Source: a virus
Lineage: Duplodnaviria > Caudoviricetes
Length of the DNA: 64,000 nt
IMG/VR virus record: IMGVR_UViG_3300028832_000109
Coordinates: 1-64,000 of that record
Reading direction: 5' to 3' (one strand)
Each line of letters starts with the position of its first letter. The first letter of the stretch is position 1. The notes under the pieces were generated by a model that was not told the origin of the DNA, made no database searches, and was given only the letters and a program-made list of their open reading frames with translations. A program made the position numbers and the translations under genes. Positions 10,200 through 35,081 of the stretch are shown here, piece after piece.

Positions 10200-12160
10200 T
10201 GGAAAATTTCAGCGCGTCTCTATTCGAAACCGTTTCATCGGCACTGGTGCGCCGGACAGTAAACAACATGTACAGCGCCCTTTTCGAGGGTCTCACGCCA
10301 CAACAGAAGACGCGCCGAGACCTGCGGAACATTCTACCGGAACCGCCAGGAGGCTGGGCTGCCCCGGCCGTCGACGAGGAGGGGAACCGGCTGCACACAA
10401 TCGAAAACGGCAGGCCGATGAACTTCGCCGAGTGCCTGGAATACAATGTCAGGAACAGCTTCTTCCATAATGGCGGCCGAACAAATCCAAAATTCGAACC
10501 GGGCGTCGCCCGCATAGCCTACACCGAACTCGGGTTATGGCCGCAGAACCTCATCGACTGGAAGGACCGGAAATCCATCCCGGACTGGGGCAAGATACGC
10601 GAGTTCGCCGCCATCTTAAAGAACATCTCCACGTCACACGCTGACGACTACGACCCGACGCTGAACGGGATGTCTTTCGACGAGCTGTCCGCCAGGTTCG
10701 CCCACGGTTCCGCTCCATCCGAAACGGTGAACGAGACGGCCGACGGGACGGGATGCCGATACGACGTTCGCTGGATTCCTAACTTCCAGACCGCCCGGCA
10801 ATACGCGAAGTATACCGAGGGAACCCAGGCCTGGTGCCTTACCACGGACCGTTCCCAGTGGAACCACTACATGAAGGGCGGCACCGTCAAGATGTACATC
10901 TGCACCAGGCCCGGATTCGAGAATGTTCCGGGCGAACCCGGCCCCAACTGTCCTCTCGACGAGTACGGGCTCTCCATGCTGGGCGTTTCAGTAAACCCCG
11001 ACGGCTCGCTCGACACGTGCTGCAGCCGCTGGAACCACCTGCACGGGGGTTCCGACATGGTGATGGACGAGGCCGAGCTGTGCAAGGTCCTCAACGTTCG
11101 GAAACTCTCCGACGTGTGTCCGCCATATACCAAGGAAGAAATCGACAATAGGGCCAACAGGGTGATGAGCGAAATCATGGCGAAGGTGCATGCCATCCTC
11201 GACAAGAACAATCCCATGGACATGTCAGCAAATTTCTTCTTTTTCGATATGAAGGACCAGTCAGTTCCCGGATACCGCCTGCTCGAACTGCATGCCGGAC
11301 GAGAACCAGCCAACAGCCGAGTAGTGTGCCTGGTGCTGAACGACAAGATGGAACCCATGTTTAAATATCCACTGGTAGAGTACCGGCTCTTCGGCGGCTC
11401 GGTAGACGCCGATACTATGGCCACCAGCAACCCGGCATCCATATCCGGGAGGTACGACCCCGATATCGATTCTCTCGATGCCCTGATGGAACCTCCACCG
11501 GCGGACATCGACATAACCGAGATGCCGATGGTGTTGGGCTCGTTCATTTCCGGGAAAACGTTCTACACGTTGGAGAACGACATTGATTGCTCGTATTGCA
11601 CCATAGACGATGTTATCGATAGCACCGACCCAAAATATTCATACCGCTACTCCGACGACGAATTGAATAGGGGAATCCTCCTGAACATACACGAAGCGTG
11701 GACCGGCGACATGCTATTGGATACAGTGAAAATGAAATTCGTCAACGAGCTCGACGACAGCTTTATCGACGGGCATGTGGGTAACATGACATGCAAGGGC
11801 GGAAAAATCTATTTCGTATCAAAGAACGGAGTCATAGATTACGGAAAAGTATTGCGCAAGGGGAAAAAGTATTTCAACGCCGACATTTGTTCTAGCCGAA
11901 ACTACCGGAATATCGGAATTGACTTGTTCACTGGCTCCATATGGGACAGAAGCGGTATTGCTTCCAAGTCACAAATGCGTCTTGTCTCCGATACCCGGAA
12001 GCTGTTCATAGTAGACCCGATTACCGGAAGAGTCATCCGCGAGTTCAACAGTGTGGACTCATATGAACTGGTGGAAACAGACGGCAATGAGATGTTCAAG
12101 ATAACCACGAACGATGGCAAGATATTGCATTGCGACTTTGACGGAAATCTGCGCGACTAG
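10199..12160 (+). CDS. large hypothetical phage protein with FE[GS] leader, possible head-internal protein
   Basis: 653 aa. WCLT...WNHY and DEYGLSMLGVSVNPDGSLDTCCSRWNH segments. N-terminal SALVRRTVNNMYSALFEG. Confidence 0.75.
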   Translation: MENFSASLFETVSSALVRRTVNNMYSALFEGLTPQQKTRRDLRNILPEPPGGWAAPAVDEEGNRLHTIENGRPMNFAECLEYNVRNSFFHNGGRTNPKFEPGVARIAYTELGLWPQNLIDWKDRKSIPDWGKIREFAAILKNISTSHADDYDPTLNGMSFDELSARFAHGSAPSETVNETADGTGCRYDVRWIPNFQTARQYAKYTEGTQAWCLTTDRSQWNHYMKGGTVKMYICTRPGFENVPGEPGPNCPLDEYGLSMLGVSVNPDGSLDTCCSRWNHLHGGSDMVMDEAELCKVLNVRKLSDVCPPYTKEEIDNRANRVMSEIMAKVHAILDKNNPMDMSANFFFFDMKDQSVPGYRLLELHAGREPANSRVVCLVLNDKMEPMFKYPLVEYRLFGGSVDADTMATSNPASISGRYDPDIDSLDALMEPPPADIDITEMPMVLGSFISGKTFYTLENDIDCSYCTIDDVIDSTDPKYSYRYSDDELNRGILLNIHEAWTGDMLLDTVKMKFVNELDDSFIDGHVGNMTCKGGKIYFVSKNGVIDYGKVLRKGKKYFNADICSSRNYRNIGIDLFTGSIWDRSGIASKSQMRLVSDTRKLFIVDPITGRVIREFNSVDSYELVETDGNEMFKITTNDGKILHCDFDGNLRD

Positions 12161-12837
12161 CCTATCCTGTCATAGAGTTTTATCAGCTTGTCCAGGCTTT
12201 CCCTTGAAATTAGGCTCCACACCTTCTGCAATTCCGGGCGTTCGAACGTCTCGGTAAGACTGCCGCTCCGCCCCTTTGCCATATCCGACATGAAGTCGAG
12301 TATGCGCGTGGTGAATACGTCCATCCCGTTCTCGCCGATTGCAGTATTTGCCGACACGAACCATTCCTTGGGCACTGTCCTGAAGAATACCGCCTGGGTG
12401 TTGTTCTCCACGCTGAATTCGGTACCGGCTGGCACGTCGAACACAACCGCCAGCTTGTCCCGTATCAGGTCCTCGGAGAACACGTTAGCCCACACATCGT
12501 TCCGTCCGGTTTCCCGGCAAACATTCTGCCGTATCCCGGAAACCAGAATGCTTTCCAGGGCCTCCGGCGTATACGTGTAGTGCATAAAACGGATAGGCCT
12601 CATGGCCCGGCGCATGGACATTCCGCCGCACGGCTCGGTCACCGACCACAGGTTGTCGGTGCAGTTTTCCCGGAGCAACCCGGAACCGAACGGCCTCAAT
12701 GCGGAAACCAGGTCGACGAGCCTGTCATAGACGGACTTTTCCGGGGCGGATTCAAAAATCGCCGAACACGCGGAGGAAACTGCCTCGGCCATCTCGGGAG
12801 AAATTCCTTCAATGTCAACCAAATCGTTCATGCGCAT
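12157..12837 (-). CDS. putative ADP-ribosyltransferase-fold protein with FE[GS] leader
   Basis: RFMHYTYTPEALESILVSGI resembles the H-x-T...L..IL..G strand-1/helix motif of ART-fold (DarT/KptA-like) proteins. The function is inferred. Confidence 0.45.
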   Translation of the reverse strand: MRMNDLVDIEGISPEMAEAVSSACSAIFESAPEKSVYDRLVDLVSALRPFGSGLLRENCTDNLWSVTEPCGGMSMRRAMRPIRFMHYTYTPEALESILVSGIRQNVCRETGRNDVWANVFSEDLIRDKLAVVFDVPAGTEFSVENNTQAVFFRTVPKEWFVSANTAIGENGMDVFTTRILDFMSDMAKGRSGSLTETFERPELQKVWSLISRESLDKLIKLYDRIG

Positions 12838-12879
12838 CTCCAAAAGAAGGCCGGGCAGCCCGAATGCCGCCCGGTCGAA

Positions 12880-13287
12880 CTAGGTACCGGCAAATATCTT
12901 CCCGACCTGCGAGATGAATTCAGCCGCGTCACGCGCAGCTAGCTCGGGATACATGCTCTCTCCCGCCTCGGGGGCGGGGCCGGAATACCCTTTCTTAAAC
13001 TCTCCATACGGGTCGCCGTCGACTTCGTACCCGTTTTCTCCAAGGTTATCTAGGAACAGTGTCTGCACGAACTCGTCAAGTTCCGGCTCGTTGTCTACCA
13101 GCATGTAGAACTTCGAGTTGTCGAACTTGCTCATGCGCTCGAGGATGGAATTTCGCCCGTATACCGGATTGTCCAATGCCATCCGGTTGAACCGGTCGAT
13201 TGCCGGCTCGGCCTCGACCGAAGACGACGACCACCCCGGGCCGTCAACGAGCATCAGCCCGCCTATCTCACCGGTGCTCTCTGCCAT
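12880..13287 (-). CDS. acidic hypothetical protein
   Basis: 135-aa ORF in an operon with 13268-13924. Confidence 0.65.
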   Translation of the reverse strand: MAESTGEIGGLMLVDGPGWSSSSVEAEPAIDRFNRMALDNPVYGRNSILERMSKFDNSKFYMLVDNEPELDEFVQTLFLDNLGENGYEVDGDPYGEFKKGYSGPAPEAGESMYPELAARDAAEFISQVGKIFAGT

Positions 13288-13924
13288 CGGTTACCTGCCT
13301 AGGGTCTACTGTAAGGAGCCTACGCCGCCCGTCGTTTCCCCGCGTGGTCAGCCTGGCACGAAGGTCAGGACCGATATCCACCGTAGCATGCCCGTTGCAC
13401 CTAGACATCTCCTCGCCGATTTCCTGCAAAGTACGCTGAATCATCATGAGGACCTGCTCGCGGCGTCCGATGTTGAAGGTGCCGTCCGCAGACTGGTACG
13501 TCCCGTCGCCATTAGCTACGATATTGTTGAGCAAATGCGGGGCCAGGTCGCGGGACTCCGCGGGGACGCCCATGTCATCGAGCACGTTGGCGATGTTCCT
13601 TTCATCGGCAACCGTTCTCGCGTTGGTGGCTGGAAGCCCATTTTCCCGGAAGCCATCCATGCCGAGCATCCTGTTCGCGCGAGGATACTGGACATCTACC
13701 GGCTGTTGGCCTGGGAGAGTCCGGGCGTTTCGCTTCCGCTTTTCCTCTCCAATCATTCCCAGGAGCGTACCGATTGCGTTTACGATTTGCGGCTCCGCCG
13801 GGCGGATGCCTGCCTGTGCCTGGTTGAGCACGTCAAATACGCACTGCAGTGGATTGGCGTCATTGGCTTGGCGTCGTTCCTGGTCACGGTATATGTCCTG
13901 GCGTCTAAGAAGGTCCCTTGGCAT
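13268..13924 (-). CDS. hypothetical protein
   Basis: Start reassigned to MPRDLL (GGAG RBS). ATAAACT lies at 13955-13961 upstream. Confidence 0.65.
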   Translation of the reverse strand: MPRDLLRRQDIYRDQERRQANDANPLQCVFDVLNQAQAGIRPAEPQIVNAIGTLLGMIGEEKRKRNARTLPGQQPVDVQYPRANRMLGMDGFRENGLPATNARTVADERNIANVLDDMGVPAESRDLAPHLLNNIVANGDGTYQSADGTFNIGRREQVLMMIQRTLQEIGEEMSRCNGHATVDIGPDLRARLTTRGNDGRRRLLTVDPRQVTDGREHR

Positions 13925-13977
13925 TTCTGCTCCGTACACGTTTGTGTCATGAACAGTTTATGGCCTTGAAAACGCAG

Positions 13978-14000
13978 AAAAGGCGGGTTTCCCCGCCTTT
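13978..14000 (-). terminator. intrinsic terminator
   Basis: AAAAGGCGGG-TTTC-CCCGCCTTT downstream of the AAA gene. Confidence 0.7.
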
Positions 14001-14021
14001 CGGTATGCTGTGCAAAGAAAA

Positions 14022-15665
14022 TTACTTGTCGCCCTTGCTCTCAATCGCCTTTTCGCGCTGGTAGTAGGTCTTTCTCGCCGCCTCACGGCTGCTGTTGAAC
14101 CCGTCGATGACGAGGTCAAGGTCTGCCTGCGTGTAGACCTCCTTCTTGTCGTGCTTGATGTAAATCTGACGGCTGAAGTTTTCCACATCTGCTGCAGAAA
14201 CCTGCGCTTCGACAAGCTTCTCCGCGGTTGTCTCGTAGACTTCGTCGGGAATGTTGTACTTGGACTCGCAGTACCTCTTCAGAAGGATAAGCATGAGCTC
14301 CTTGTCCGGGAATCCGACCTCGATGGTCTCGTCGATTCGCCCGCCGCGTTCCATGATGGACTCGTGCACCTTGAGCGGGTCGTTGATGGTTGAGAAGATG
14401 ATGGTCGGGAACTTGGAGCTGCGAACCTTTGCGAAGAATTCGATGAGCTTGTTCGTTTCGGACGTCTTGGCACTGATTTGGAGAGAATCGAGTTCGTCAA
14501 GAAGAATCACTGCCTTCTGGGTCATGTTCACGCAAAACATGATTCTGTCGAGGGTGCTGTCGAGGGTACGGTCGTCGAGCTTGCAGTTAATCATCATGAA
14601 TCCACGCTGGGCGAGCTCGTCCATGATGTGTTCGCATGTCGAGGTCTTTCCCGTACCGAGCGGGCCGACCAGGGCATAGGAGAGGGACTGCGAAGTTTCG
14701 GCTGCGCGGGAGCACCATTCGGAAATCTTCTTCATCGTGTCGGACATCACCCACACGTCGGAATCCGCACGCTTTTCGTTCGGCAATACGTAGATTCTGC
14801 TGGCGTCGACGAAGTAGTGGTAGGTCTTCGTGTCGAGTTCGCGATAGATGTAGGTCAGCGCGGCCTGTACGCATTCCTCGTTGGAATACGACGGATGCTC
14901 GACAACGTACGCGGCGTGTTCAGTGAGCACCTGTCCGCCGATGAACTTCGACGGGGTGTCCGGAGATGTGAGCGCACCGACCAGTTCCTCGGACTTCTCG
15001 TCACCGATGGTGAACTTTTCCATCTTCAACACGTATAGGGTCTCGACAGCGGGGTCGCCGCCCGATGCCTTGAGCCTGCGGCAGCGGAGCAGCACACAGA
15101 GCTGTGTAGTGATGATGATGTTGCCGCTGGAGTTGATTGTCGGCGGGTTTCCCTCGATGCCTTCGACGGTGAAGTCGTAGATGCGGTCGTCTACGTTGAA
15201 CTCGTAGCGGGTCTTCGGCTTCATCTTGAACACGAGGTACATGAGGATTTCACCGATAGGAATCGGGCCAGCGCATGCGCCGGAATAGTTGTTGCAGATA
15301 GGAATCTCGACGTTGAACTTGGTGGCGATGTCCTTCCAGAAGATAATCTCGGCGCGGTTCTCCATGGAGTTGGACGGCTGGACGTTGGCGTGGATGTTGT
15401 CGAGCAGGTAGTACAGGGCGATGCCGTTTCTCGCGAAAGCGATGAAGTCCTTGATTCCGCGGTTAGCCGACTTCTCGAAGAGCCTCGTCGCAAGGTCTGT
15501 CGCCAACGAACAGGCCGGGAGTATGCTCTTGAAGCTTGCGTTCTTTGCCGTCCTCTTCAGGCGTTTCCAGTCAATGCCTTCGGGGGTGATGAAGTCTGTG
15601 GAGAATCGAGGTATTTGGTTACCAATCTCCTTCAAAAGTTCCAGAAAATTTGGAGAGTCTGACAT
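14022..15665 (-). CDS. AAA+ ATPase with a long N-terminal domain
   Basis: Walker A GPLGTGKT, Walker B ILLDELD, sensor STIN, arginine finger ERGGRID. Confidence 0.9.
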   Translation of the reverse strand: MSDSPNFLELLKEIGNQIPRFSTDFITPEGIDWKRLKRTAKNASFKSILPACSLATDLATRLFEKSANRGIKDFIAFARNGIALYYLLDNIHANVQPSNSMENRAEIIFWKDIATKFNVEIPICNNYSGACAGPIPIGEILMYLVFKMKPKTRYEFNVDDRIYDFTVEGIEGNPPTINSSGNIIITTQLCVLLRCRRLKASGGDPAVETLYVLKMEKFTIGDEKSEELVGALTSPDTPSKFIGGQVLTEHAAYVVEHPSYSNEECVQAALTYIYRELDTKTYHYFVDASRIYVLPNEKRADSDVWVMSDTMKKISEWCSRAAETSQSLSYALVGPLGTGKTSTCEHIMDELAQRGFMMINCKLDDRTLDSTLDRIMFCVNMTQKAVILLDELDSLQISAKTSETNKLIEFFAKVRSSKFPTIIFSTINDPLKVHESIMERGGRIDETIEVGFPDKELMLILLKRYCESKYNIPDEVYETTAEKLVEAQVSAADVENFSRQIYIKHDKKEVYTQADLDLVIDGFNSSREAARKTYYQREKAIESKGDK

Positions 15666-15699
15666 TTGATTCCTAGTACGGTTGATTGTTTGTTATCCT

Positions 15700-15732
15700 A
15701 AATATAGCAAAAAATACGCCCCTGTATAAACT
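15700..15732. promoter_or_regulatory. back-to-back TTGCTATATTT (minus) and TATAAACT (plus) motifs
   Basis: AAATATAGCAA 15700-15710 and TATAAACT 15725-15732 lie between divergent genes. Confidence 0.65.
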
Positions 15733-15763
15733 TTTTGAAAATTTTTCAATCCCGGTGACGAAA

Positions 15764-17086
15764 ATGCGCGAAAACTACCTGCAATTCATGGCCGAATGCG
15801 ACCGACTGAAAAAGTATTTCCTCCTCGAGGCCGAGGGGGACGATTCCGACCTCGCCGAAGCCGGGCCCGATGAAGACACCGGCGACACGGAAGGCGGCAA
15901 GGATTCCGGAAAAGATAAGGCCGAGAAGAAAAAAGAGTCCGACGACGAGGGGAAACCCGCCGAGAAGGACACCGGCAATGCCGACAAAGCGCAGGAACCC
16001 GAAAGGGAACCCCAGCCGGCCCAGAGCCCACAGGCCTCCCCGTCGACTGCCCCTGACCCCTCCAAGGTGAACGCGGCAGGACGCGCACCCGGGGCAATCA
16101 GCCCGCAGGCGCTAATCGCCGAGATGAGCTCCGGCAAGGACAATATCTATACAAGGGTGCTCGGCGTACTCAGGACCAGGTTCCCGAAGGGCGAATGCCA
16201 GGTCAAGGACATGATTGAGCCAATATCCCATGCGGTGAGCGCCTTCATGAAGAACAAGAACTACGCCCCGCTCCCGAAGGATACCATGAAGGCGGTGTGT
16301 CTGAACATCGCCAAGCAGATTTCCGAACGGTCCGCCGCATCGAAGAAGGCCCAGCCCCGCCCGCAACAGGGACAGCAGAAGGTGGAGGCCGCATACTTTA
16401 GCAAGCAGCGCCCGTGCATCGAGTCGCTCGGCCTCCTGGAAAGCTGGAAGGAGCTGCTCCTCGCGGGAGGAATAGCCGCCGGTTCGGCAGGAGCGGCAAC
16501 GGCGCCTTCCGCCCCGGAAAGCACGCTCAGGGGAACGCCGAGATACACCGCTATGCAGGACGGTACCCAAGTCGGCAGGCAGGACAAGCAGGGGCAGCAG
16601 CCCGCAGGGATGTCAAGCGTCCCGAAGACGGCAAATTCCGGGAACGTCGCCTTCAGCAAGGACAGCACCTACCAGCTCAGCCCAGACGACTACGTGGATT
16701 ACAAGACCGCAGGAAATCTCCCGGAGAACTACGTGGTTTCCCGGGGCTCCGGAAGCGGCAAGACCGATACCCCGGTCGAAAAGGGCGGGTCGGTAATGCA
16801 GGGTGTCGTGAAGGAGCAGGCCAAGAGCGGCAAGACAACTGGCGAAATTGCCGGGAAATGCAAGGAAAGTACGGGAAACCCGGACGCATTCCGGAAGACT
16901 GTTCACGAGACCGGCCACAAGGCGGTGGATGCCGCAATCAAGGGCGGTAGCGCGGTTGTCGGCGGACTCATTGGCGGGGCCAAGGGAATGGTCCGTGGCG
17001 CGAAGGAGGCCTGGAACCGGGCATCCCGCGGGATAGAATCCGACCACGACAAAATGGTGAGCGAGCGCGAAACCAAGAAAAAATAG
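15764..17086 (+). CDS. low-complexity hypothetical protein, possible head-internal protein
   Basis: Start reassigned to MRENYL. Acidic, disordered stretches with LLEA, IESL and LLES motifs. Follows a late motif. Confidence 0.7.
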   Translation: MRENYLQFMAECDRLKKYFLLEAEGDDSDLAEAGPDEDTGDTEGGKDSGKDKAEKKKESDDEGKPAEKDTGNADKAQEPEREPQPAQSPQASPSTAPDPSKVNAAGRAPGAISPQALIAEMSSGKDNIYTRVLGVLRTRFPKGECQVKDMIEPISHAVSAFMKNKNYAPLPKDTMKAVCLNIAKQISERSAASKKAQPRPQQGQQKVEAAYFSKQRPCIESLGLLESWKELLLAGGIAAGSAGAATAPSAPESTLRGTPRYTAMQDGTQVGRQDKQGQQPAGMSSVPKTANSGNVAFSKDSTYQLSPDDYVDYKTAGNLPENYVVSRGSGSGKTDTPVEKGGSVMQGVVKEQAKSGKTTGEIAGKCKESTGNPDAFRKTVHETGHKAVDAAIKGGSAVVGGLIGGAKGMVRGAKEAWNRASRGIESDHDKMVSERETKKK

Positions 17087-17111
17087 AAAAGGGCCGCGAG
17101 AGCGGCCTTTT
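17087..17111. terminator. bidirectional intrinsic terminator
   Basis: AAAAGGGCCGC-GAGA-GCGGCCTTTT between convergent genes. Confidence 0.8.
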
Positions 17112-17127
17112 CCATTACTCCATTCGG

Positions 17128-17496
17128 CTATTCGCCCAGAAACGGGTTCTTCGAATCACCCGTCCACCAGGTTATCGTGAACGGCACGTACGGGTTGTTC
17201 ACCATGGGATGAGCGGACATGACCACGTATCCCAGTCCGTCCAGGCACCGAACCACATCATTAAAGACGAACTCGCGGTTCTTGTTGGACACATAGATTG
17301 ATGCCCCGCGTTCCGCTCCGCCGATTAACGCTGCCAACCGTTCAGCGAGTTCCTTGTGCGTCTCCCTAAACTCGTCACCCGCGGTCTTGAGCGAATTGGT
17401 TATCCGCTTCACCGTATCTTCTGCGCTGGGAATGATGCTCTGCACGGTGGCTTTCTTCTTGACCGTGCGCTTCGTCGTAGTTCCTGTCTTAGCCAT
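17128..17496 (-). CDS. hypothetical protein
   Basis: 122 aa with a basic N-terminus, coupled to the HD gene. Confidence 0.65.
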   Translation of the reverse strand: MAKTGTTTKRTVKKKATVQSIIPSAEDTVKRITNSLKTAGDEFRETHKELAERLAALIGGAERGASIYVSNKNREFVFNDVVRCLDGLGYVVMSAHPMVNNPYVPFTITWWTGDSKNPFLGE

Positions 17497-17497
17497 G

Positions 17498-18067
17498 TTA
17501 TACTCCCATGTAAAGTTCCGCGTATCTGTCAGACTGGAGTTCCTTCTCCGGATGGTGGCGCTCGGCGTCTATTACCGCGTCGCTAATCCGGTTACGCTCC
17601 ATCGCGTACCTGTTCTGCCGCTCGTAGTCAGATGGCTTCGGTGACGGTATGCGGGTCAGGTCCATGTTGTTGTCCAGGTCGACCAGCTTTACCTTCGCTG
17701 CCAGATAATTGTCGGCCACTCGGCCAATGTACACGTCGCGGTCCTCCGACTTGTTCCTCGTGAGAATCGCGACCACCTTCCACACCACCGGGGGGAACCA
17801 CGCTGCGAGGTCCGATATAGTAAAGCCCCCATCCTCCACCACGTCGTGAAGGTAAGCTATCGCGGTCAGGTTATCGTCGGAATAACGCCGCGCGGTGTCG
17901 CGCCCAACGCTCCCAACGTGCTCGATATACTTGTGCCCGCCCTTGTCCAGCTGCCCGTCGTGGGCGAACTCGGCAAACCGGATTGCCTTTTCCACCAGGC
18001 CGATGCCCGAAGGTATTCCAGTCCTTACAAATTCCTTGATTTCATCCCTTGAACGCATTATCGACAT
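17498..18067 (-). CDS. HD-domain protein, RelA/SpoT hydrolase (Mesh1/SAH)-like
   Basis: AHDGQLDKGGHKYIEH, AYLHDVVED, KVKLVDLDNNMDLTRI. Confidence 0.85.
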   Translation of the reverse strand: MSIMRSRDEIKEFVRTGIPSGIGLVEKAIRFAEFAHDGQLDKGGHKYIEHVGSVGRDTARRYSDDNLTAIAYLHDVVEDGGFTISDLAAWFPPVVWKVVAILTRNKSEDRDVYIGRVADNYLAAKVKLVDLDNNMDLTRIPSPKPSDYERQNRYAMERNRISDAVIDAERHHPEKELQSDRYAELYMGV

Positions 18068-18183
18068 TCCTGTGTTGGATGTTTACCATACATTTACATA
18101 CACCGGCCATCGCCGGTACATGATGTAAACTAGTCCATTTTTCGAGAAATAATGTAGTTTCGTCTTATCCAACGAGAGCAACC

Positions 18184-18753
18184 ATGAAAATTCCCACAAA
18201 AGAAGAGCGCTTCGACATCAATCTCGGAAAGCTCAGGATAATGGATGTCAACATAATCCAGGACCTTACTCAGGAAACCATCGCCCTGTTGTCTCTGGTG
18301 ACACAGTGCGAATCCAACGTGGTACTGGACACACCCGTGAAGCTCCGCACGGTGGCCGGATTCGACCACTACTTCGTCAAGGGAGAATTCTCGTCCGGGG
18401 ATGCATACGGCAATATATCCTTCGCGTGGACAGTAAAGACCGAAAACCCCGAGCAATACGACGTGCACAAGATAACGGTCGAATTCCCGAACATGGGTGA
18501 ATGCGAAATCATCTGGAATTCGAACCAGGCCGTCGTCGACCGAATGTCGCAGGAATACTCATTGTTCCTACAGGCAAGCCGGTTCGTCCCGAAGCGGTAC
18601 AAGGAAATCGAGGCACTACTGCAGAAAATCCGCACGATGCATCTTGAACAGGACGTGCGTGACAAGATACTACCTATAATTGACCAAGTGAGCGCCCTTC
18701 TCGGCAACGCGCTGAAAAAGGACGAACGAGTGGCAACATACGGGAAGGAATAG
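18184..18753 (+). CDS. hypothetical protein
   Basis: 189-aa ORF, first of a three-gene operon. Confidence 0.7.
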   Translation: MKIPTKEERFDINLGKLRIMDVNIIQDLTQETIALLSLVTQCESNVVLDTPVKLRTVAGFDHYFVKGEFSSGDAYGNISFAWTVKTENPEQYDVHKITVEFPNMGECEIIWNSNQAVVDRMSQEYSLFLQASRFVPKRYKEIEALLQKIRTMHLEQDVRDKILPIIDQVSALLGNALKKDERVATYGKE

Positions 18754-18756
18754 CAT

Positions 18757-19365: not shown

Positions 19366-19378
19366 TGAGATGTAGACC

Positions 19379-19726: not shown

Positions 19727-19748
19727 CCGGTCAGTTTCAATGGAAACT

Positions 19749-19778
19749 AAAAACCTCCCTTCCGGGAGGTTTCTTTTT
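19749..19778. terminator. bidirectional intrinsic terminator
   Basis: AAAAACCTCCC-TTCC-GGGAGGTTTCTTTT between convergent operons. Confidence 0.8.
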
Positions 19779-26672: not shown

Positions 26673-26685
26673 TTTACCTCCGTGA

Positions 26686-26693
26686 TATAAACT
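26686..26693 (+). promoter_or_regulatory. TATAAACT late-promoter-like motif (terminase)
   Basis: 46 nt upstream of the terminase ATG. Resembles T4 late TATAAATA. Confidence 0.65.
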
Positions 26694-26739
26694 AGGTATT
26701 TGTGGACACGACAACACCGCGTCCGGGAGATATTTTAGT

Positions 26740-28395
26740 ATGCCATTCAATGGGATTTTCAACCTGCGCGACGCCAACGAGAGCGTCACCCTGGATGCCA
26801 AAAAGGTCCAGGAATTGAAGCGCTGCGCGAAAAACCCGATTTACTTCATCAGGAACTACGTGTACATCAACACGAAGGACCACGGGATGCAACTGATGAA
26901 GACCTACCCGTTCCAGGACGCCGCAATCCTCCGCTTCATGCGGTACCGCTTCAACATCAACAAGTGGTCCCGCCAGGTGGGTAAGTCGACCGTCGTACGC
27001 GCATACATCCTCTGGTACGCACTGTTCCACAAGGACAAGCTGATAGCGATGCTCGCCAACAAGCTGATGCTCGCGAAGGAACAGCTGCAACTTCTGCGCG
27101 ACTCCTACGTGGCACTCCCGTACTGGCTGCAGCCGGGCGTAAAGCTTTGGAACAAGCTCAGCATCCAGTTCAGCAACGGGTGCCGAATAATGGTCGCCGC
27201 GTCGTCGCCGGACGGCATCCGCGGGTTCTCGCCAAACCTCCTCTACCTCGACGAGTTCGCGTTCCTGCGACCCGGCATGGCAGACGAGTTCATGGCCTCC
27301 GTGATGCCCACGATTTCTTCCGGGAAAACCACCCGGATAATCATCACGAGCACCCCCAACGGCCTTAACCACTTCTACAGGATGTGGGAGGACGGCGTCG
27401 AGGAAGACCAGGCCACTCCTCACGACATGGAGTCCAAGTACATACGTTCGACTGTGCTGTGGAACGACGTGCCCGGACGCGAACCCCAGTGGGGAATCGA
27501 CGAGGAGGCGCGTATCGGCGAGCAGAGGTTCAGACAGGAATACCTCTGTGAGTTCATCGGTTCTGCCACGACCCTCATCGACTACAAGATATTGCAGGAC
27601 CTGAAACCGGTTACACCCATGCGCATTCCCGGAGTCCCCGCGCCATACTCGCTGAGGATATACAATACTCCCCTGCCCCGGCAACTCATGGAAAAGGAGG
27701 ACTGGACGTATGTCGCCGCGCTCGATACTGGATTCGGTATGCGGCAGGACTACCACGTGCTGCAGATTCTGCTCGCGAAGAGCTCCTGCCGCGCCGAGCA
27801 GGTCCTCGTATTGTCGTCCAACGAGGTAACGGTCGAGGACTTCTGCTCCATGTCGGCCAGCATCCTGCACATGTACGGAAACCCGCCGCTTACCATCGAG
27901 TTCAATGGCGGCTCTGGCATGACGGCCCACAAGACGATGTTCGAGAAACTGGGGTACGACAACCTCATCAACTACGACAAGTATTTCCGCGGCATCTACT
28001 CGACAAACCCAATCAAGACGACCGCCGTAATGCTACTGAAACTGTATGTGCAGCGCGGGTACCTCACCCTGAAGGATGAGAATACCATCAACGAGCTCAT
28101 GAGCTTCACAAAGCTAAACCAGTTCACCTGGGGAGGTTCCGGTGGAAACCACGACGACCACGTGACGTCGCTGTACTGGTGCGTCTACTTCATGGAGTCC
28201 GGCTGGTTCCCTGGCAAGCACGAGGACATCAAGTTCCTCGACGCGCTGGAAATCACGTTCGCTGGAGGGGACGTACGGGAAGCCCTGCAGGCCGCGGTCC
28301 TCACGGGCGCGGACCCTGTCGCCATAAAGGAACAGCGTGCCCTAGCGGACCTTTCGGCGAAAACCCAATACGCTCCAGCAACGGCAACGGTATAA
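26740..28395 (+). CDS. terL: terminase large subunit (T4 gp17-like)
   Basis: YPFQ, SRQVGKST, LYLDEFAF, ITSTPNG, FRQEYLCEF, ALDTGFG, HDDHV. Confidence 0.96.
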   Translation: MPFNGIFNLRDANESVTLDAKKVQELKRCAKNPIYFIRNYVYINTKDHGMQLMKTYPFQDAAILRFMRYRFNINKWSRQVGKSTVVRAYILWYALFHKDKLIAMLANKLMLAKEQLQLLRDSYVALPYWLQPGVKLWNKLSIQFSNGCRIMVAASSPDGIRGFSPNLLYLDEFAFLRPGMADEFMASVMPTISSGKTTRIIITSTPNGLNHFYRMWEDGVEEDQATPHDMESKYIRSTVLWNDVPGREPQWGIDEEARIGEQRFRQEYLCEFIGSATTLIDYKILQDLKPVTPMRIPGVPAPYSLRIYNTPLPRQLMEKEDWTYVAALDTGFGMRQDYHVLQILLAKSSCRAEQVLVLSSNEVTVEDFCSMSASILHMYGNPPLTIEFNGGSGMTAHKTMFEKLGYDNLINYDKYFRGIYSTNPIKTTAVMLLKLYVQRGYLTLKDENTINELMSFTKLNQFTWGGSGGNHDDHVTSLYWCVYFMESGWFPGKHEDIKFLDALEITFAGGDVREALQAAVLTGADPVAIKEQRALADLSAKTQYAPATATV

Positions 28396-28428
28396 ACTGA
28401 GGATTAATCCAAGACGGTTTAATTGCCC

Positions 28429-29448
28429 ATGTCCAGTTTCAATGACCTCGACGAACTGTTGCAGCTCACCAAGATGGTGGAAGCGACCTCGACCAATTCC
28501 GACACCGTGAAGGAGGAACCAGACCTTCCGGCCACGGTGCGTGCCTACGACTCCGGCGACTACACCGGGAAGGCCACGTTCCTCCGGACGCATGCCGAGC
28601 CGGAACCAACCGCGGCCGACGTTCCGAAGCCACCCAAGGACGGGAAGGCCTACGGCAGCTCCGGGAACGCCACGTTCCGGGACAAGAAGGGCAAGCCGAT
28701 AGAAAACGGGCCCCTGTTCGAAGAGGATTCTCCGGAAGACACGGTGGGCGAACCGATAACGGACGGCGCCGAGCAGTCCGCCCCCGCAGAAGGGGCCGAC
28801 CCGGATGCCGACTTCGAGGGCGCTGGAACGTCAATCGGCAAGTCGCTGAAACGCGGCTTGTCGTTCAGCCTGGAATCCGTCCGGACCGGCATGGGCAGCG
28901 AGTTCGTGAACAAGTACCTCATGGAGCAGGCGTCGGATTTGCAGGGATGCCGCAACAACCCGTTCCAACTCGGGGATGCGGTCCAGGTCAACGGGATACC
29001 CCGTATCTTCATCGTCAAGAACAATGACGGAAACATGATTCGGACGGCCAAGCCGACCAACTGCATTGCCGACTACGCCAAGGGCAAGGACGGGGTGTGG
29101 CCCGAATACTGCTTCCAGTGTGACGAGCTATCCAAGATAGACAACGCCAACCTGTCCCAGGCCGACGACATCGCCGAGTTCAACGACCGCGACATCGACA
29201 CTACCGGTTTCAACGGGCTCACCATCGACCCCAAGCCGATGGAACTTGCGCAGGAGTTCGCGAGAGAACGCAGCATGGACACCGTTGCCGATAACCTCAA
29301 CGACATTCTCGGTGTATACCGCTCGGCAGCTTCCGGGAACGACAAGGAGTTCAGCTACACCGCCGTGACTCCCAAAACGACGTTCGTGCTTCCGAACGGA
29401 GAAATTACCACTCAGGAAATCGCGCACGGATACCGGAGCCTATACTGA
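28429..29448 (+). CDS. acidic hypothetical late protein
   Basis: TATAAACT at 28391-28398 upstream. MVEA, LFEE and SLES motifs. Confidence 0.7.
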   Translation: MSSFNDLDELLQLTKMVEATSTNSDTVKEEPDLPATVRAYDSGDYTGKATFLRTHAEPEPTAADVPKPPKDGKAYGSSGNATFRDKKGKPIENGPLFEEDSPEDTVGEPITDGAEQSAPAEGADPDADFEGAGTSIGKSLKRGLSFSLESVRTGMGSEFVNKYLMEQASDLQGCRNNPFQLGDAVQVNGIPRIFIVKNNDGNMIRTAKPTNCIADYAKGKDGVWPEYCFQCDELSKIDNANLSQADDIAEFNDRDIDTTGFNGLTIDPKPMELAQEFARERSMDTVADNLNDILGVYRSAASGNDKEFSYTAVTPKTTFVLPNGEITTQEIAHGYRSLY

Positions 29449-29825
29449 TGAAACCTACACTGGTATACGACGCAACCTGCGCCCTATGCACTAACTACCA
29501 GCGTTTCCTCGAGCGGCGCCTGGGTGACCGGCTCGATTACGAACCTGCCGGGGCCGAAGCAAAGGACGTGAAGTACAAGGCAGCCGACGGGGCAACCTTT
29601 TCCGGTACAAAGGCGATAGAGAAACTCACGGCCGATTTCCCTGAAGTAAGGGAACTCAACTTCTTCCTTCCGCAGAAATTACGTGATGCGGGCGTGTCGA
29701 TTCCGGGAAAACTTCCGGTTGCCGGAGTGAAAGCAGCCTATAAGGTGAGCGGTGCCGTCCGCAAGACCTATCATGCGGTCAGGGGCGGGTGCAACTGCGG
29801 TGGTGGGCCACGGAAAAGCAAATAG
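29448..29825 (+). CDS. DCC1/DUF393-like thiol-disulfide oxidoreductase
   Basis: N-terminal LVYDATCALC. C-terminal GGCNCGGG. Confidence 0.7.
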   Translation: MKPTLVYDATCALCTNYQRFLERRLGDRLDYEPAGAEAKDVKYKAADGATFSGTKAIEKLTADFPEVRELNFFLPQKLRDAGVSIPGKLPVAGVKAAYKVSGAVRKTYHAVRGGCNCGGGPRKSK

Positions 29826-30122
29826 CTAAGGTTTAGCTTTTCCGTCGTTCCAGCACATGAAATTGCATTCCGGGCAGAACGTGTAGTAGTCCACCAATAC
29901 ATCTGGAATCCAGGTATCTGTACCTTTAATATTCCGTTCGAATGTTACTTCTTTTCTATAGCAATCGGTAATCTTCGTCTTGAACTCGCATCCGCAGCGT
30001 TCGCACGTGAAGGCAAAGAACGGATTACCGTGCTTGATAATCTCGGCCGATGACGCGGTAAGACGGTCAATTCCACATATGCCCCTGAAAAGTTGTAATA
30101 GCTTCGGCATTCCAATTCTCAT
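29826..30122 (-). CDS. small zinc-ribbon protein
   Basis: FTCERCGCEF...CPEC. Confidence 0.55.
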   Translation of the reverse strand: MRIGMPKLLQLFRGICGIDRLTASSAEIIKHGNPFFAFTCERCGCEFKTKITDCYRKEVTFERNIKGTDTWIPDVLVDYYTFCPECNFMCWNDGKAKP

Positions 30123-30186
30123 GTTGAGCGAAAACGTCTTCTATTATATGGCATCGTTCAGGTCCACTATCTTCTTGCCGAAGTAA

Positions 30187-31305
30187 CTATTTCTGCTGCC
30201 CGAGCTTTATCTGGATTCCGCCGGGACCATTTTCCCCTAGGATATCCATCGACACATGGAGCACACCGTTTTGGAGTTCGGGGACGAAACTGTCCTGAAC
30301 CACTGCACGCGGGAAATAGAAGCTGTAATTGAACTCCTCGACAAACGGCGGGATTGCAACCTGGGCAGCGAATTCTGGTCGTTTACCCTTGTTCCCCTTG
30401 CCCTTGAGCTTCGGCGCCATCAGCTTAGCCTGAATCTTGCGGGTGCCGGTGATTACGAGGTTCATGTTGATGTAGTTAATCATGATGTCCTCTTCCTTAA
30501 CACCCGGCAAGTCGACGAAGAAGTGGTACTTCCCATTGGCAACAATCATTTCATAATTGGGTTCGCCATAGTTGGGTAGCACCCGGACAATCGACTCCCC
30601 GGACTGCCCGGATTCGTCCTGCTGAGCCTGCTGTTGCGGCATCTGCTGAGCCGGCATTTGCATCTGCATCTGCATCTGCATTTGCTCCATCGGCTGCATT
30701 TGCTGCATCTGCATTTGCGGCTGCATCATGCCCTGTGGCATCATTCCTTGTCCCTGCATCATCATTCCCTGTCCCTGCTGCATATTAATCCACTCCCTTT
30801 GCTGTTCCATAAAGTTTCTTCTTTCCGCATCGAGCCGATAGCGTTCCTGATTGAGACGCTGCCGTTCGAGTGCGAGGTTGTTTTGTTCATCTTCCATCTG
30901 TCGCTGGAATTCCCACTCTTCTCGGTGGGCAAGCTGTTTCTGCGCCATTGCCTGTTGCTGCATCTGCGCCTGGCGAGTGCGTCCGAGCCGCCTGGGCCCC
31001 TGTGGAGGGGCGGCGACCCTGCGACCTGCAGCATCGGTGTCCACCTGGCCAGGTATGCGGTTCTGCCGGTTGATGCGCTGCACTTCCCTCATAGTGATGT
31101 CGTTCAGCCGTTCCGGGTTTCCTCCGCCCTTCATCTCTTGCGGCATGACCGGATTTTCGCTGCACAGGAGGGTAGGCTCCTCGTCATAGTCAGGATAATA
31201 ACGTAATCCCATCGGTTCTTCCTCTTCCTCGTCGCCTAAGTTCCAGTCTTCCGGCACGGCGCGTTCGCCGAAGACGAAATCCTTGATTTTCTTGAAAATG
31301 CCCAC
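30187..31305 (-). CDS. small heat-shock (Hsp20) protein with a long Q/M-rich N-terminal arm
   Basis: C-terminal VDLPGVKEEDIMI...LVITGTR...LQNGVLHV alpha-crystallin signature. Confidence 0.85.
   Translation of the reverse strand: MGIFKKIKDFVFGERAVPEDWNLGDEEEEEPMGLRYYPDYDEEPTLLCSENPVMPQEMKGGGNPERLNDITMREVQRINRQNRIPGQVDTDAAGRRVAAPPQGPRRLGRTRQAQMQQQAMAQKQLAHREEWEFQRQMEDEQNNLALERQRLNQERYRLDAERRNFMEQQREWINMQQGQGMMMQGQGMMPQGMMQPQMQMQQMQPMEQMQMQMQMQMPAQQMPQQQAQQDESGQSGESIVRVLPNYGEPNYEMIVANGKYHFFVDLPGVKEEDIMINYINMNLVITGTRKIQAKLMAPKLKGKGNKGKRPEFAAQVAIPPFVEEFNYSFYFPRAVVQDSFVPELQNGVLHVSMDILGENGPGGIQIKLGQQK
30619..30790 (-). repeat. Gln/Met low-complexity tract
   Basis: MQQGQGMMMQGQGMMPQGMMQPQMQMQQMQPMEQMQMQMQMQMPAQQMPQQQAQQ, with CAGATG hexamer repeats. 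Confidence 0.9.
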
Positions 31306-31306
31306 A

Positions 31307-32128
31307 TTAGTGTATCCCGTCGGTAAAGTCGTCTAGCCCGTGGGCCTCCCGGAGTTTCGCCAGGGCCTTCGCCTTTGTATGGCGAGCCCACTCCTTCGAT
31401 GTCCCGAACTCTACGGCCGCTTCTTCTAAACTAGATTCTTCTCCGTCAAGTCCATACATGCAGCGCAACAGTTTTCTCTCGTCCGGGGTCAAGGTGACCT
31501 TGAGTTCGGAATTTACTCGTTCCCTCAGCAGTTCCATCCCGTACCGGTAATCGGGCATCTTGCTCGGGTCGGTGTCCTGGATGGACTCGCCGACCGTTAT
31601 GGCCCCGCCGTCGTCATCGTCGGTATCTACTGGAAGGTCCATGGAGAAGGTGTGCATGATGGATGCCTCGGCTTCCTTCCCGTACCTTATCGTATCCACC
31701 GGATTTCCCTTACGGAGCGCGTCAAGGACCTTCTTCCTGAGGCGCACGGGTACACGTACCAGGTCGTTCTCCTGCACTGTCCCGCCCATCCGTGTCCTCA
31801 TGTACCACACGGCGAACGAGCCGAACTTCACCCCTAGCGTGTAGTCGTATCGGTAGAAGGCCTCCATCAAGCCCAGCTTGGCATCAGCGTAGAAATCTTC
31901 CACAGGTATGCTAGTGATTCGATGGTAGTCCATCGCGAACTGCAAGGCAAACCTGAGATTTGACTGTATCACCTTGAGTTTCGCGGATTCCCGTATGTGT
32001 TTCGGTATCGACTGGTCATGATATATCTTGAAGCACGCGGTCTCGGCGTCCCTTCCGATAATCTCATAAGCGGAGGTCTCCTTTATCAGCAAGGATACAT
32101 TCTCCCCCATGTCAACTTTTTTAGCCAT
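31307..32128 (-). CDS. sigma-70 family RNA polymerase sigma factor (regions 2-4)
   Basis: SNLRFAL, GLMEAFYRYDYTLGVKFGSFAVWYMR, LVRVPV, SMDLPV, LTPDERKLL..MYGL...SLEE...EWARH..KALAKLR. Confidence 0.92.
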   Translation of the reverse strand: MAKKVDMGENVSLLIKETSAYEIIGRDAETACFKIYHDQSIPKHIRESAKLKVIQSNLRFALQFAMDYHRITSIPVEDFYADAKLGLMEAFYRYDYTLGVKFGSFAVWYMRTRMGGTVQENDLVRVPVRLRKKVLDALRKGNPVDTIRYGKEAEASIMHTFSMDLPVDTDDDDGGAITVGESIQDTDPSKMPDYRYGMELLRERVNSELKVTLTPDERKLLRCMYGLDGEESSLEEAAVEFGTSKEWARHTKAKALAKLREAHGLDDFTDGIH

Positions 32129-32222
32129 CTGATAGTTCCACAGTTAATTACCAGTAATATAACCACATATCAACAATTTGTCAACATGTTTTTTACAAAA
32201 ACTTACTATAAACTGAAAAAAT

Positions 32223-32546
32223 ATGGAAGAAAACCGTTCAGACTATACGCTCATGGCCAACCTGGACCAGGCGGCATTCGCGGAACTTGCCGGAAAGGCC
32301 GCGAAACAGCTGTGCAAAAGGGTCCAGTCGGTAGCCATGCTCAACTACAGAGGCCCAGGCTATCTGTACCAGGACTTCGTGGTTACCATCCGCCAGGATT
32401 CCAAGCGAAAGAAGCTGGAAGTTGTGCGCAACCGTGACGCGGTGGTAGTGCTCGCCGTGGACAACGGGCGCATGATAGCGGTAAACTACGAGTACATCTT
32501 CGTCGAACGCCACCTGAATGACAAGGTAAGTACGGGCAATGGCTAA
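32223..32546 (+). CDS. hypothetical protein
   Basis: 107 aa. TATAAACT at 32207-32214 lies 8 nt upstream. Overlaps the infA start. Confidence 0.65.
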   Translation: MEENRSDYTLMANLDQAAFAELAGKAAKQLCKRVQSVAMLNYRGPGYLYQDFVVTIRQDSKRKKLEVVRNRDAVVVLAVDNGRMIAVNYEYIFVERHLNDKVSTGNG

Positions 32547-32757
32547 GGAATGCGGAGTAGTAGTCGAGGGCACCGTGAAGGATGCCCGAGGTAGCGGATT
32601 CTTCACCGTGGTGCTCGACAACGGTTTCGAGGTACTCGCTCGGCCTAACGGGAAAATGACCAAGAACACAATAAGGATTAACCCGGACGACAGGGTAAAG
32701 GTGGAACTCGGCCCATACGACCCGACGCGAGGCCGAATAATCTTCAGATACAAATGA
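32539..32757 (+). CDS. infA: translation initiation factor IF-1
   Basis: 72 aa: MAKE..VVEGTV...FTVVLDNG.EVLA...GKM..N.IRI...DRVKVEL.PYDPTRGRIIFRYK. Confidence 0.95.
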   Translation: MAKECGVVVEGTVKDARGSGFFTVVLDNGFEVLARPNGKMTKNTIRINPDDRVKVELGPYDPTRGRIIFRYK

Positions 32758-32760
32758 CAG

Positions 32761-32786
32761 AAAGGACCGGGCAAGCCGGTCCTTGT
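32761..32786. terminator. intrinsic terminator
   Basis: AAGGACCGG-GCAAG-CCGGTCCTT between convergent genes. Confidence 0.7.
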
Positions 32787-32810
32787 TGTATCGACGTCTG
32801 CTATTGAAAA

Positions 32811-33557
32811 CTACTTGTCCGCGGGCTTCGCCTGAGCCTTCGGGGCAGGCTTCTTCGCGGCGGCCTTCCGGGTTGCCGTCTTCTTCGCAGGGGCCTTTTT
32901 AACCGGGGCCTTCATCTCCTTCTTGACAGTTACCTTCGGTGCCGTGATTTTCGGCGCCGTTTCGGTCTTTCCCGGATTGCGCTTGGCCTTGGCCATCGCT
33001 TTCTTCAGGTCGGCCAGGTTCGCCCTGTATTTCGCCAGGGTGCGGTCGGACGATTCCGGCATGCCGGCGACCTTCAGGACATCGATGCGGCGTGCGATGC
33101 GCTGCTCATAGAACTTGACGAGTTCCTCGGCAGTGGCCGGCTTGCTGCGGGTGGCAGGCTTCTTGGGTTCGGCCGGGGTAGCATCATCGCGCTTCGTCAG
33201 TGGCTTGCCCTTGGCGCCCGGAAGCTGCACCGTCACGGTATCCTTCCCGACTTTCTCCTCGAACGAGACATCGGCCGTAATGGACACGGGAACGGAAACA
33301 TCGTAGGCGACTGACTGGTCACCAAGACCTGCTGGGGTTAGCCCGCCGAATACCGAGTCGACCGAAGGGTTTACCCCCACCGGTTCGTGCTGTTCAGCAG
33401 GAGCTTCGGTGTCCGGGGTTTCGACTTCTGGCGCATCAGCTTCCGCAGTATCGGCGAACGCCTTGTCGATTGCCGACTTGCGTCGTTTCGCGATTACGCA
33501 AAAACCGATGATGAACGCTATGACAATGACCGCCGAAATCACATATTCCAATGTCAT
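32811..33557 (-). CDS. membrane-anchored protein with a histone-H1-like Lys/Ala/Pro tail
   Basis: N-terminal TM VISAVIVIAFIIGFCVIA. C-terminal KKAPAKKTATRKAAAKKPAPK. Confidence 0.75.
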   Translation of the reverse strand: MTLEYVISAVIVIAFIIGFCVIAKRRKSAIDKAFADTAEADAPEVETPDTEAPAEQHEPVGVNPSVDSVFGGLTPAGLGDQSVAYDVSVPVSITADVSFEEKVGKDTVTVQLPGAKGKPLTKRDDATPAEPKKPATRSKPATAEELVKFYEQRIARRIDVLKVAGMPESSDRTLAKYRANLADLKKAMAKAKRNPGKTETAPKITAPKVTVKKEMKAPVKKAPAKKTATRKAAAKKPAPKAQAKPADK

Positions 33558-33622
33558 CGTATTCTCCTTATTTTGGACTGTTACCCGATGAAACTATTAC
33601 ATTCCGCTATAAACTGGATGTT

Positions 33623-33844
33623 ATGGCGAAACAAAAGTCCAAAAAAGTCAAGACCCTCCCGGAAAATACCGTACCACAGGTAGAAGCCGTACCGGCAAAA
33701 GAACAGCCCGCCCGTCCGGCAGTCTCCGGCGAATCATCGGCCCCCGTGGTGCCGAAGAAGCGGGTACGAATACGCAAGAAGGCGACGAAGCATCTCTCCG
33801 TCGCCGTACTGTGCACGAACCCGATAACCCGGCGGTTCATCTAG
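33623..33844 (+). CDS. small basic hypothetical protein
   Basis: MAKQKSKK... starts 7 nt after TATAAACT (33608-33615). Confidence 0.5.
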   Translation: MAKQKSKKVKTLPENTVPQVEAVPAKEQPARPAVSGESSAPVVPKKRVRIRKKATKHLSVAVLCTNPITRRFI

Positions 33845-34440
33845 GTTGCCGGGTAGACCACCGGTTCAAGTCCTTCCTCGTCATCGTCATCGTCACTGCG
33901 TCCGCCCTCGTTATTGACGGGGGCGTTTCCTATCGTGAACGACTCGCATTCCTCGATTATGATATTGAATCTCTTCGGGAGCATCTTTCCCTTGCGTTCT
34001 TCCTTGATGCCGAAGTAGAGTTCCTGGATGTCGTTGTCCGAGTTCTCCCCATTTTTTATGAAGGACATGACCGCCTCTCGGCATCCCTTCTTGACGGAAA
34101 ACGCGATGTTAATGAGCTGCGCCTTGAAGCATGTTCCGGGCACGTTGGCCGGAATATTGTGGCCAAAATCGATGTCGACGAAGATGCCCTTGTCGGCCAG
34201 CGGAATGCTGATTTTCCACGGAACGTTCGCCGTCGGAATCTTCTCGTCAAAATTGGCGAGCTCCGGGATAATGCCGTACGACGCCCACCGGCCGAACGCA
34301 CCGGCGAATAAGTCTATTTCGCTGTCGTTGTCGTCCGGAATAGTCTTGATTTCAAACTTGCGCACCGAGGAGTTCTTCGGCCCGAACTTGGCCAACCCGC
34401 CCATGAAGTTGAGCTTCAGCATACCTTCTTTCGATTTCAT
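33841..34440 (-). CDS. hypothetical protein with an acidic tail
   Basis: 199 aa. TTGCTATATTT at 34472-34482 upstream. Confidence 0.7.
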   Translation of the reverse strand: MKSKEGMLKLNFMGGLAKFGPKNSSVRKFEIKTIPDDNDSEIDLFAGAFGRWASYGIIPELANFDEKIPTANVPWKISIPLADKGIFVDIDFGHNIPANVPGTCFKAQLINIAFSVKKGCREAVMSFIKNGENSDNDIQELYFGIKEERKGKMLPKRFNIIIEECESFTIGNAPVNNEGGRSDDDDDEEGLEPVVYPAT

Positions 34441-34471
34441 AGAAATGCTCCATAGTTTAAAGGTCCGTCAC

Positions 34472-34492
34472 AAATATAGCAAACAATAAACT
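34472..34492. promoter_or_regulatory. back-to-back TTGCTATATTT (minus) and ATAAACT (plus) motifs
   Basis: AAATATAGCAA 34472-34482 and ATAAACT 34486-34492. Confidence 0.65.
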
Positions 34493-34511
34493 ACACGAAC
34501 GAGGACCAATC

Positions 34512-35081
34512 ATGAAAAACACACTTCTTCGCTTTACCCGCCAACTTACCCAGTACAGCCCGCTCCTCCGCCAGAGGGTGGAAAACATTTACAGCAAGAT
34601 ATTCGAGGGAATAGGAACCAACGCCGCCCTCAGCAACCTACGGGACAAGGTCGGGGACAATTCCCTTGAAACGGAAGGCGACGGGGTGTTCGGCCTCAGC
34701 GGTGCCGCCGGGTTCAAAGACTCCCCGACACCGGAAGCATCACTGGACAAGGCCATCGACGACGGAATCGAGTCCGGGAACCTGGAACAGTTCGGTACCG
34801 CCATCCCGACCGAGTCGCTACCGACGGAAGAGGACTTCGGCCTCGGCGCCGACCCCATGGAAACCACGGGCGACCCGCTTGCTGACCTGTTCGGCGACGA
34901 CAGCGGTTCGGCGAGCGACCTTGGCCTAGACGGCCTGGATGATGAGTTCCCGGAAGAGGAACCCGATATTGCGCCCGAACCCGAGTTGGCAACGGACGAC
35001 AAGCCGGTAGATTCGCCGGAAGGCGGAGTTGCTCCGGAAGACGGGATTGCGCCCGCGGGTGACGATGAACTGCCAGTCTAA
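34512..35081 (+). CDS. very acidic protein with FE[GS] leader, candidate prohead core or internal protein
   Basis: SPLLRQRVENIYSKIFEG followed by a D/E-rich disordered remainder. Confidence 0.7.
   Translation: MKNTLLRFTRQLTQYSPLLRQRVENIYSKIFEGIGTNAALSNLRDKVGDNSLETEGDGVFGLSGAAGFKDSPTPEASLDKAIDDGIESGNLEQFGTAIPTESLPTEEDFGLGADPMETTGDPLADLFGDDSGSASDLGLDGLDDEFPEEEPDIAPEPELATDDKPVDSPEGGVAPEDGIAPAGDDELPV

Follow-up and report, generated by a model that had tools for sequence, protein, structure and literature searches.

On a virus contig of 108.6 kb (IMG/VR record IMGVR_UViG_3300028832_000109, 108,608 bases, here G000), the initial 64 kb encode several proteins that begin with a similar leader of about 30 residues, running from the initiator methionine to the tripeptide [LI]-F-E. 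It is present on three proteins of the window, as we call the whole stretch of 64,000 nucleotides that was analysed, which are referred to here as A, B and C, and on a fourth, D, encoded just past its end. With a probability that we put at roughly 0.7, this leader would be a T4-type capsid-targeting propeptide that is cut after FE by a head protease of the gp21 type. The basis for this reading is the shared leader itself, the restriction of its terminal motif to N-termini, and the protease and capsid families found in related phages, together with the sites in the N-terminus of their capsid protein.

The leader and its four carriers

A first-pass annotation of this DNA had reported an 18-residue motif at 10238-10291 (plus strand), 12801-12748 (minus strand) and 34557-34610 (plus strand), and all three peptides are found there in real-looking genes (Table 1). 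The likeness is longer than these 18 residues. A first short helix, often followed mid-way by (S/D)-P, leads into the pattern h-x3-V-x3-Y-x2-[LI]-F-E, where h is a hydrophobic residue, and then a small residue. The [LI]-F-E is invariant across 15 aligned leaders, and in all four carriers and their relatives the leader ends between residues 27 and 35. It is retained by the C and D orthologues of related phages, with Gly, Ser, Asn or Gln after the glutamate, and the many paralogues of the N-terminal domain of A in these phages mostly open with it as well. The start of D was set by an ATAAACT word 7 nt upstream. The sequences past the leader, which would be the mature parts of the four proteins, show no significant pairwise similarity, so the description of the leader as an N-terminal element shared by otherwise unrelated late proteins is borne out. 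Its description as an amphipathic helix is not, as the hydrophobic moment is clearly over that of shuffled sequences for B only. In an AlphaFold model of residues 1-330 of A the leader forms helices at residues 2-11 and 15-27, and FE/G, where the slash marks the predicted cut, lies in the loop before the next helix. The leader of A also contains an earlier LFE (SLFE/T at residue 10, window 10199-10228), which suggests that it may be cut twice, as T4 propeptides are.

Relatives of the contig were found through orthologues of protein C and fetched whole: G001 (171 kb), G002 (260 kb, 91% complete) and G003 (161 kb). G000 itself has a GC content of about 55% and a CheckV completeness of 26%. It has 70 of its 85 proteins in common with G003, at a mean identity of 63%, and 56-61 with each of the other two; identity across these related jumbo-phage contigs is about 60%. 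Because 56-70 of its 85 proteins are shared, G000 is placed in one lineage with G001-G003, which by these comparisons is a lineage of uncultured giant phages related to T4. The large terminase of G000, encoded at 26740-28395, finds its matches among terminase families of the T4 type and has 32% identity to those of T4-type Acinetobacter phages; weak matches to a tail tube and a baseplate hub are also present. A DNA search of a phage collection with the A-B region gave zero matches.

A hidden Markov model (HMM) of the leader built only from orthologues of C finds D among all six-frame open reading frames (ORFs) of the contig with E = 4e-5, and a strict iterative search converges on C and D only; to link A and B to them, the calibrated profile comparison below was needed. 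When each family in turn was left out of the model and the four genomes were searched (911,000 six-frame residues), the omitted family came first after the training sequences in all four cases, and every time the alignment reached FE; with A left out, an unrelated ORF stood between the two members of that family in the ranking. Comparison of profiles with hhalign gave P-values of 5e-11 for C against D, 2e-6 for A against C and D together, and 5.5e-6 for B against A, C and D. Since the segments had been chosen for ending in FE, the hhalign score was calibrated on 200 control 28-mers from protein interiors that likewise end in [LIMFV][FL]E. These controls score 7.6 +/- 2.2, with a maximum of 17.3; the score of B is 22.6, which none of the 200 reach. 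The same scoring of all N-terminal candidates placed leader-like N-termini of three further families in the relatives above the control maximum, namely a 560-residue protein of G001 and members of two families of 1100-1200 residues. On these sequence comparisons, together with the motif positions given below, a chance resemblance of the leaders is excluded.

Motif position and the head protease of related phages

Taken over the four genomes, composition predicts 4.8 occurrences of [LI]FE with a small or polar residue behind it in residues 9-65, where 31 were observed, and the N-terminal enrichment over chance that the first-pass annotation had looked to as a mark of a tag is also seen in each genome on its own. 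In G000, 7 of 10 occurrences of [LI]FE[GSNQDA] lie in residues 9-60 (1.3 expected, p=6e-5); near the N-termini lie 11 of 15 in G002 (p=5e-7), 7 of 7 in G003 (p=6e-7) and 6 of 8 in G001. No N-terminal enrichment was seen for [AGS].E[GSA] and [LI]F[DQ], which served as controls; [LI]FD, [LI]YE, [VM]FE and [LI]FK occur at expectation, and [LI]LE is likewise enriched at N-termini. In the remainder of the proteins [LI]FE with a small residue was found 9 times against 21 expected. This depletion past residue 65 has a Poisson P of 0.002, with no correction for the 8 motifs tested and with orthologues that are not independent, and it hints at proteome-wide selection against a protease motif.

Both G002 and G003 encode a Peptidase_S77 protein (PF03420, the T4 gp21 type), with E-values of 4e-14 and 3e-15 that are over the curated Pfam cut-off, and the G002 protease matches the structure of T4 gp21 (5JBL) with an E-value of 4e-9. 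The columns of His85 and Ser140 of T4 gp21, which we take to be its catalytic residues, are invariant in the protease alignment. The same two contigs encode a gp23-type capsid protein (PF07068, E ~1e-65), the N-terminus of which contains TLME/T at residue 39 and QL[FL]E/S at residue 51. Alignment of this protein to mature T4 gp23* opens three residues past the second site, at gp23* residue 18. T4 gp23 is cut after L-T-E, as given by the mature chain against the precursor, and T4 gp22 contains IFE-S and VFE-A. The presence of L-x-E sites at the maturation position of the capsid protein suggests that the end point of the leader is the kind of site, at the kind of place, that this protease family uses. 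The motif at which the leader ends fits a gp21-type cleavage site (L/I-x-E), which supports this part of the earlier proposal of a cleavage tag. As the contig of the window lacks a head module, the protease of its phage is deduced from these relatives.

In the relatives the protease gene is adjoined by genes for a 65-residue protein ending in VFE/S and a 301-residue protein with KLE/S and KFE/S. From its position we take the latter to be the scaffold; its PHROG match, which is sub-threshold, is to a minor tail protein. In G002 the protease gene spans 129034-129747 and the gene of the 301-residue protein 129750-130655. The two flank the protease gene in an arrangement that mirrors the T4 gene order 67/68-21-22. 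Between the capsid-protein and protease genes of G002 there are two large paralogous genes (123782-127619, L034; 535 and 742 residues) with Cys/His-rich N-termini; the matching interval of G003 is about 1.7 kb (146515-148257) and has no called gene, and the two genes look like inserted mobile genes.

If the leader is a T4-type propeptide, the carrier genes would be expressed late, alongside the structural genes, and the leader would dock its carrier onto the scaffolding core during prohead building. The gp21-type (S77) prohead protease would then cleave after the glutamate of [LI]-F-E and the leader fragment would exit the head. The mature protein would be retained inside, to be delivered with the DNA or, for acidic members, as a component of the core, and we infer that carriers may in this way be injected into the host. 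The conservation over 30 residues far exceeds what a protease site needs, which argues for a second function of the leader, such as docking onto the core.

Were the leader instead an uncleaved docking or oligomerisation helix for another late structure unrelated to the head, such as the tail, the baseplate, a fibre or an assembly chaperone, the position of A and B next to a giant fibre-like gene would be readily understood, as would the lack of a direct head link on G000. It seems improbable, since such a helix would leave unexplained the constant end at [LI]FE and a small residue, the sixfold N-terminal enrichment with depletion elsewhere, and the occurrence of the same motif at the maturation region of the relatives' capsid protein.

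A number of points weigh against a head propeptide. All of its support comes from sequences, and both cleavage and presence in the virion are predictions. Neither PF03420 nor PF07068 has a match over the whole of G000, a fragment of about 26% completeness from which the entire head module is missing. The leader is about three times as long as the capsid-targeting sequence (CTS) of T4, and the likeness drawn to it is one of layout. With the leader profile, families A, C and D were all that came back from 1.84 billion protein representatives, apart from repetitive false positives, so that portability has been seen in just a few families of a single lineage. In the leave-one-family-out searches the E-values are weak for A (0.15) and B (4), neither being significant alone, and C and D, which are both small, could be distant paralogues. 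These last two points would also favour the view that the resemblance is due to chance or is a remnant of ancestry, the carriers being diverged paralogues that have kept only their N-terminus and have no tag function. We consider this very improbable in view of the calibrated profile comparisons and the constant end point; the carriers moreover differ in size and composition, and leader-like N-termini occur on three more families.

Known systems and the fate of the carriers

In T4 the CTS is a conserved N-terminal propeptide of 10-20 residues that is present on diverse internal proteins and removed by gp21, and it suffices for the packaging of foreign proteins (PMC3012670, PMC5694885, PMC9958956). 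The principle has been known since 1996, according to the passages of these three papers that cite Mullaney and Black 1996. The case described here would be this known principle in a new lineage, with no new mechanism, and it leaves the mechanistic understanding unchanged. Like the CTS on T4's internal proteins IPI-III and the propeptide of Alt, the leader is N-terminal, common to unrelated proteins, encoded in late genes and terminated by aliphatic-x-Glu, and among the genes of the lineage are those for a protease of the gp21 family and a capsid protein of the gp23 family. In contrast to the T4 sequences it has about 30 residues in two predicted helices, the residue at P2 is almost always Phe (or Leu), and the carriers include proteins of 650-1200 residues. 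These differences in length and helical form, the near-fixed Phe and the very large carriers are, with the proteome-wide skew of the tetrapeptide, what is specific to this lineage.

The phiKZ-like phages (phiKZ, 201phi2-1 and SPN3US; protease gp175/gp245) contain many large internal proteins that are cut at an x-x-Glu motif, and paralogous cargo proteins with conserved N-termini (PMC5694885). In these phages cleavage follows A/S/G-x-E, and propeptides of more than 100 residues are common (PMC5694885, PMC10052503). The giant-phage setting, the large proteins and the paralogous families with conserved N-termini are alike in the lineage studied here. However, the phiKZ-type motif [AGS].E is without N-terminal enrichment in these genomes, and the capsid protein of the relatives matches the Pfam family of T4 gp23 directly.

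The same tag and protease might serve a different end. It is possible, though on balance we hold it unlikely, that some or all of the leader proteins, above all C and the product of the gene at 15764, are components of the prohead core or scaffold that are degraded or kept as internal peptides, and not injected effectors. The N-terminal part of C is short and helical and gives way to a highly acidic tail (pI 4.05 and 27% Asp+Glu in the mature part), a layout also seen in T4 gp67. The product of 69204-69860 has three conserved sites in close succession, as multiply cut T4 core proteins do (PMC5694885 on multiple processing). Several h-x-E sites close to the N-terminus and acidic tails are features that these proteins share with T4 gp67, gp68 and gp22; sequence similarity is absent, however, PHROGs searches being empty, and a role in the core is suggested here by gene layout and composition. 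A and its paralogues, of 474-933 residues, and the leader proteins of 1100-1200 residues in the relatives, are on the other hand large and multidomain with one N-terminal site, and therefore fit retained cargo better than scaffold. Both fates would be compatible with a propeptide: C may be a core component like gp67 rather than delivered cargo, and the protein with multiple sites looks like a degradable component of the core. One member of family C from the global search (P0005, 333 residues) has an extra C-terminal domain of about 140 residues past the acidic region, which suggests that an acidic protein can itself act as a carrier.

When proteins were grouped by family, a conserved N-terminal site of the form h-[FL]-E-small was seen in a dozen families or more, though some of these are probably false, for example one whose N-terminus looks like that of RuvC-type resolvases. 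It could be supposed both that the two-helix leader of 30 residues is a transferable docking module on at least seven unrelated families, including proteins of more than 1000 residues, and that the whole proteome has been purged of [LI]FE-small outside N-termini. We regard this joint proposal as rather doubtful; if it were true, the specificity of the head protease would shape the sequence of every phage protein and not just those of the head.

If the leader does target the capsid, it provides a list of head-internal proteins: A with its numerous paralogues, B and D, and in the relatives several proteins of 1000-1200 residues. As no function is recognisable in these carriers, new injected effectors or anti-defence proteins could be sought among them. 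Engineers could also use the leader as a packaging tag, and it would show the T4 head-loading principle in a distant branch, with a longer leader and Phe fixed at P2. Several large leader-bearing genes are clustered 10-30 kb upstream of the head module (G003 107381-125007 and G002 79232-100709), a possible cargo island.

Carrier proteins, further candidates and transcription units

A, B, C and D are without a match in Pfam, PHROGs or PADLOC. The N-terminal domain of A (residues 1-314) has several paralogues in the related phages with differing C-terminal parts, in open frames of 386-935 residues. Its AlphaFold model has a mean predicted local distance difference test score (pLDDT) of 70.5; Foldseek found no match to it in the PDB at E <= 0.001, and with VIA-align the best Z among 48,161 chains was 4.5, confined to the three N-terminal helices. 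Pfam searches with 8 paralogues and a profile search of the PDB were also empty. A PcfJ-like nature of this domain was considered from language-model neighbours, one third of whose members carry PcfJ, and was rejected, as PF14284 is matched by none of the 8 family members at E up to 1. Single-linkage clustering places the 2512-residue fibre-like protein at 2219-9757 (minus strand) with the A family, presumably because it shares a domain with the C-terminal part of an A paralogue.

The first-pass annotation had described B as having a domain like that of ADP-ribosyltransferases. Neither the three databases nor the PDB sequences give B a match, and the only hint of such a domain comes from a DarT/PARP cluster at rank 12 among the language-model hits. 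One near-identical protein is the only homologue found, with none in five related contigs, and a single-sequence AlphaFold model (pLDDT 38) is unusable. For the further candidates, Pfam and PHROGs searches gave only two hits, both sub-threshold: the minor-tail match of the 301-residue protein and a match of one large protein to Lcl_C. The leader of gene 15764-17086 is of a different sequence class from the leaders of A-D.

Table 1. Carrier genes, leaders, further candidates and ATAAACT words. Coordinates are those of the window unless the contig is named; a slash marks the predicted cleavage point.
Feature	Coordinates	Strand	Description
Gene A	10199..12160	+	653 residues; motif at residues 14-31
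Leader of A	10199..10291	+	31 codons, ends ALFE/G
Gene B	12157..12843	-	224-228 residues; probable start ATG 12831; motif ends at residue 28 (32 from TTG)
Leader of B	12748..12831	-	28 codons counted from ATG 12831, ends AIFE/S
Gene C	34512..35081	+	189 residues; motif ends at residue 33
Leader of C	34512..34610	+	33 codons, ends KIFE/G; retained in all orthologues
Gene D	contig 65362-65718, just past the window	+	118 residues; NIFE/S at residue 31
Further candidate	15764..17086	+	22-residue N-terminal piece ending FLLE/A, then acidic stretch; kept in two relatives
Further candidate	contig 69204-69860, past the window		Three conserved sites (LFE-S, IVE-S, IFE-G) within 50 residues
Further candidate	contig 89746-92949, past the window		Conserved N-terminal h-[FL]-E-small site
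ATAAACT	9816..9822	+	Heads unit of small ORF 9852-10199, then gene A
ATAAACT	13955..13961	-	Heads minus-strand unit 13939-13268, 13287-12880, then gene B
ATAAACT	15726-15732	+	Places start of gene 15764..17086 at 15764
ATAAACT, late-promoter-like	34486..34492	+	20 nt upstream of C

A further proposal for the leader would be that it is a recognition sequence for a modifying enzyme, in the manner of the leaders of ribosomally synthesised and post-translationally modified peptides. This is extremely improbable: the sole radical-SAM match on the contig (20024-20221) is under the Pfam cut-off and far from any leader gene, and the carriers are proteins of 118 to 1200 residues, not peptides. The gene adjoining this match, of 862 residues, is inferred to encode an anaerobic ribonucleotide reductase.

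Bases 1-127 of G000, which are also the start of the window, and its final 127 bases form an exact 127-base inverted repeat. IMG/VR labels it as 'inverted terminal repeats', and an assembly artefact on a fragment of about 26% completeness is equally possible.

The word ATAAACT was observed 16 times in the window, against 3.5 expected, and it heads the terminase gene. The word also stands directly in front of C, of D and of the three further candidates of Table 1, at 15764, 69860 and 92949. The earlier claim that A, B and C all lie in ATAAACT units holds in part: C is headed directly, A is the second gene of its unit, and B is only probably the third gene of its own, the operon of three minus-strand genes that end with B being suggested by their spacing. 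The first gene of the unit that contains A is a small ORF on the plus strand (9852-10199, 115 residues). It was missed by gene calling from codon usage and is without a match in PHROGs; it begins 29 nt past the ATAAACT at 9816 and extends to the start codon of A.

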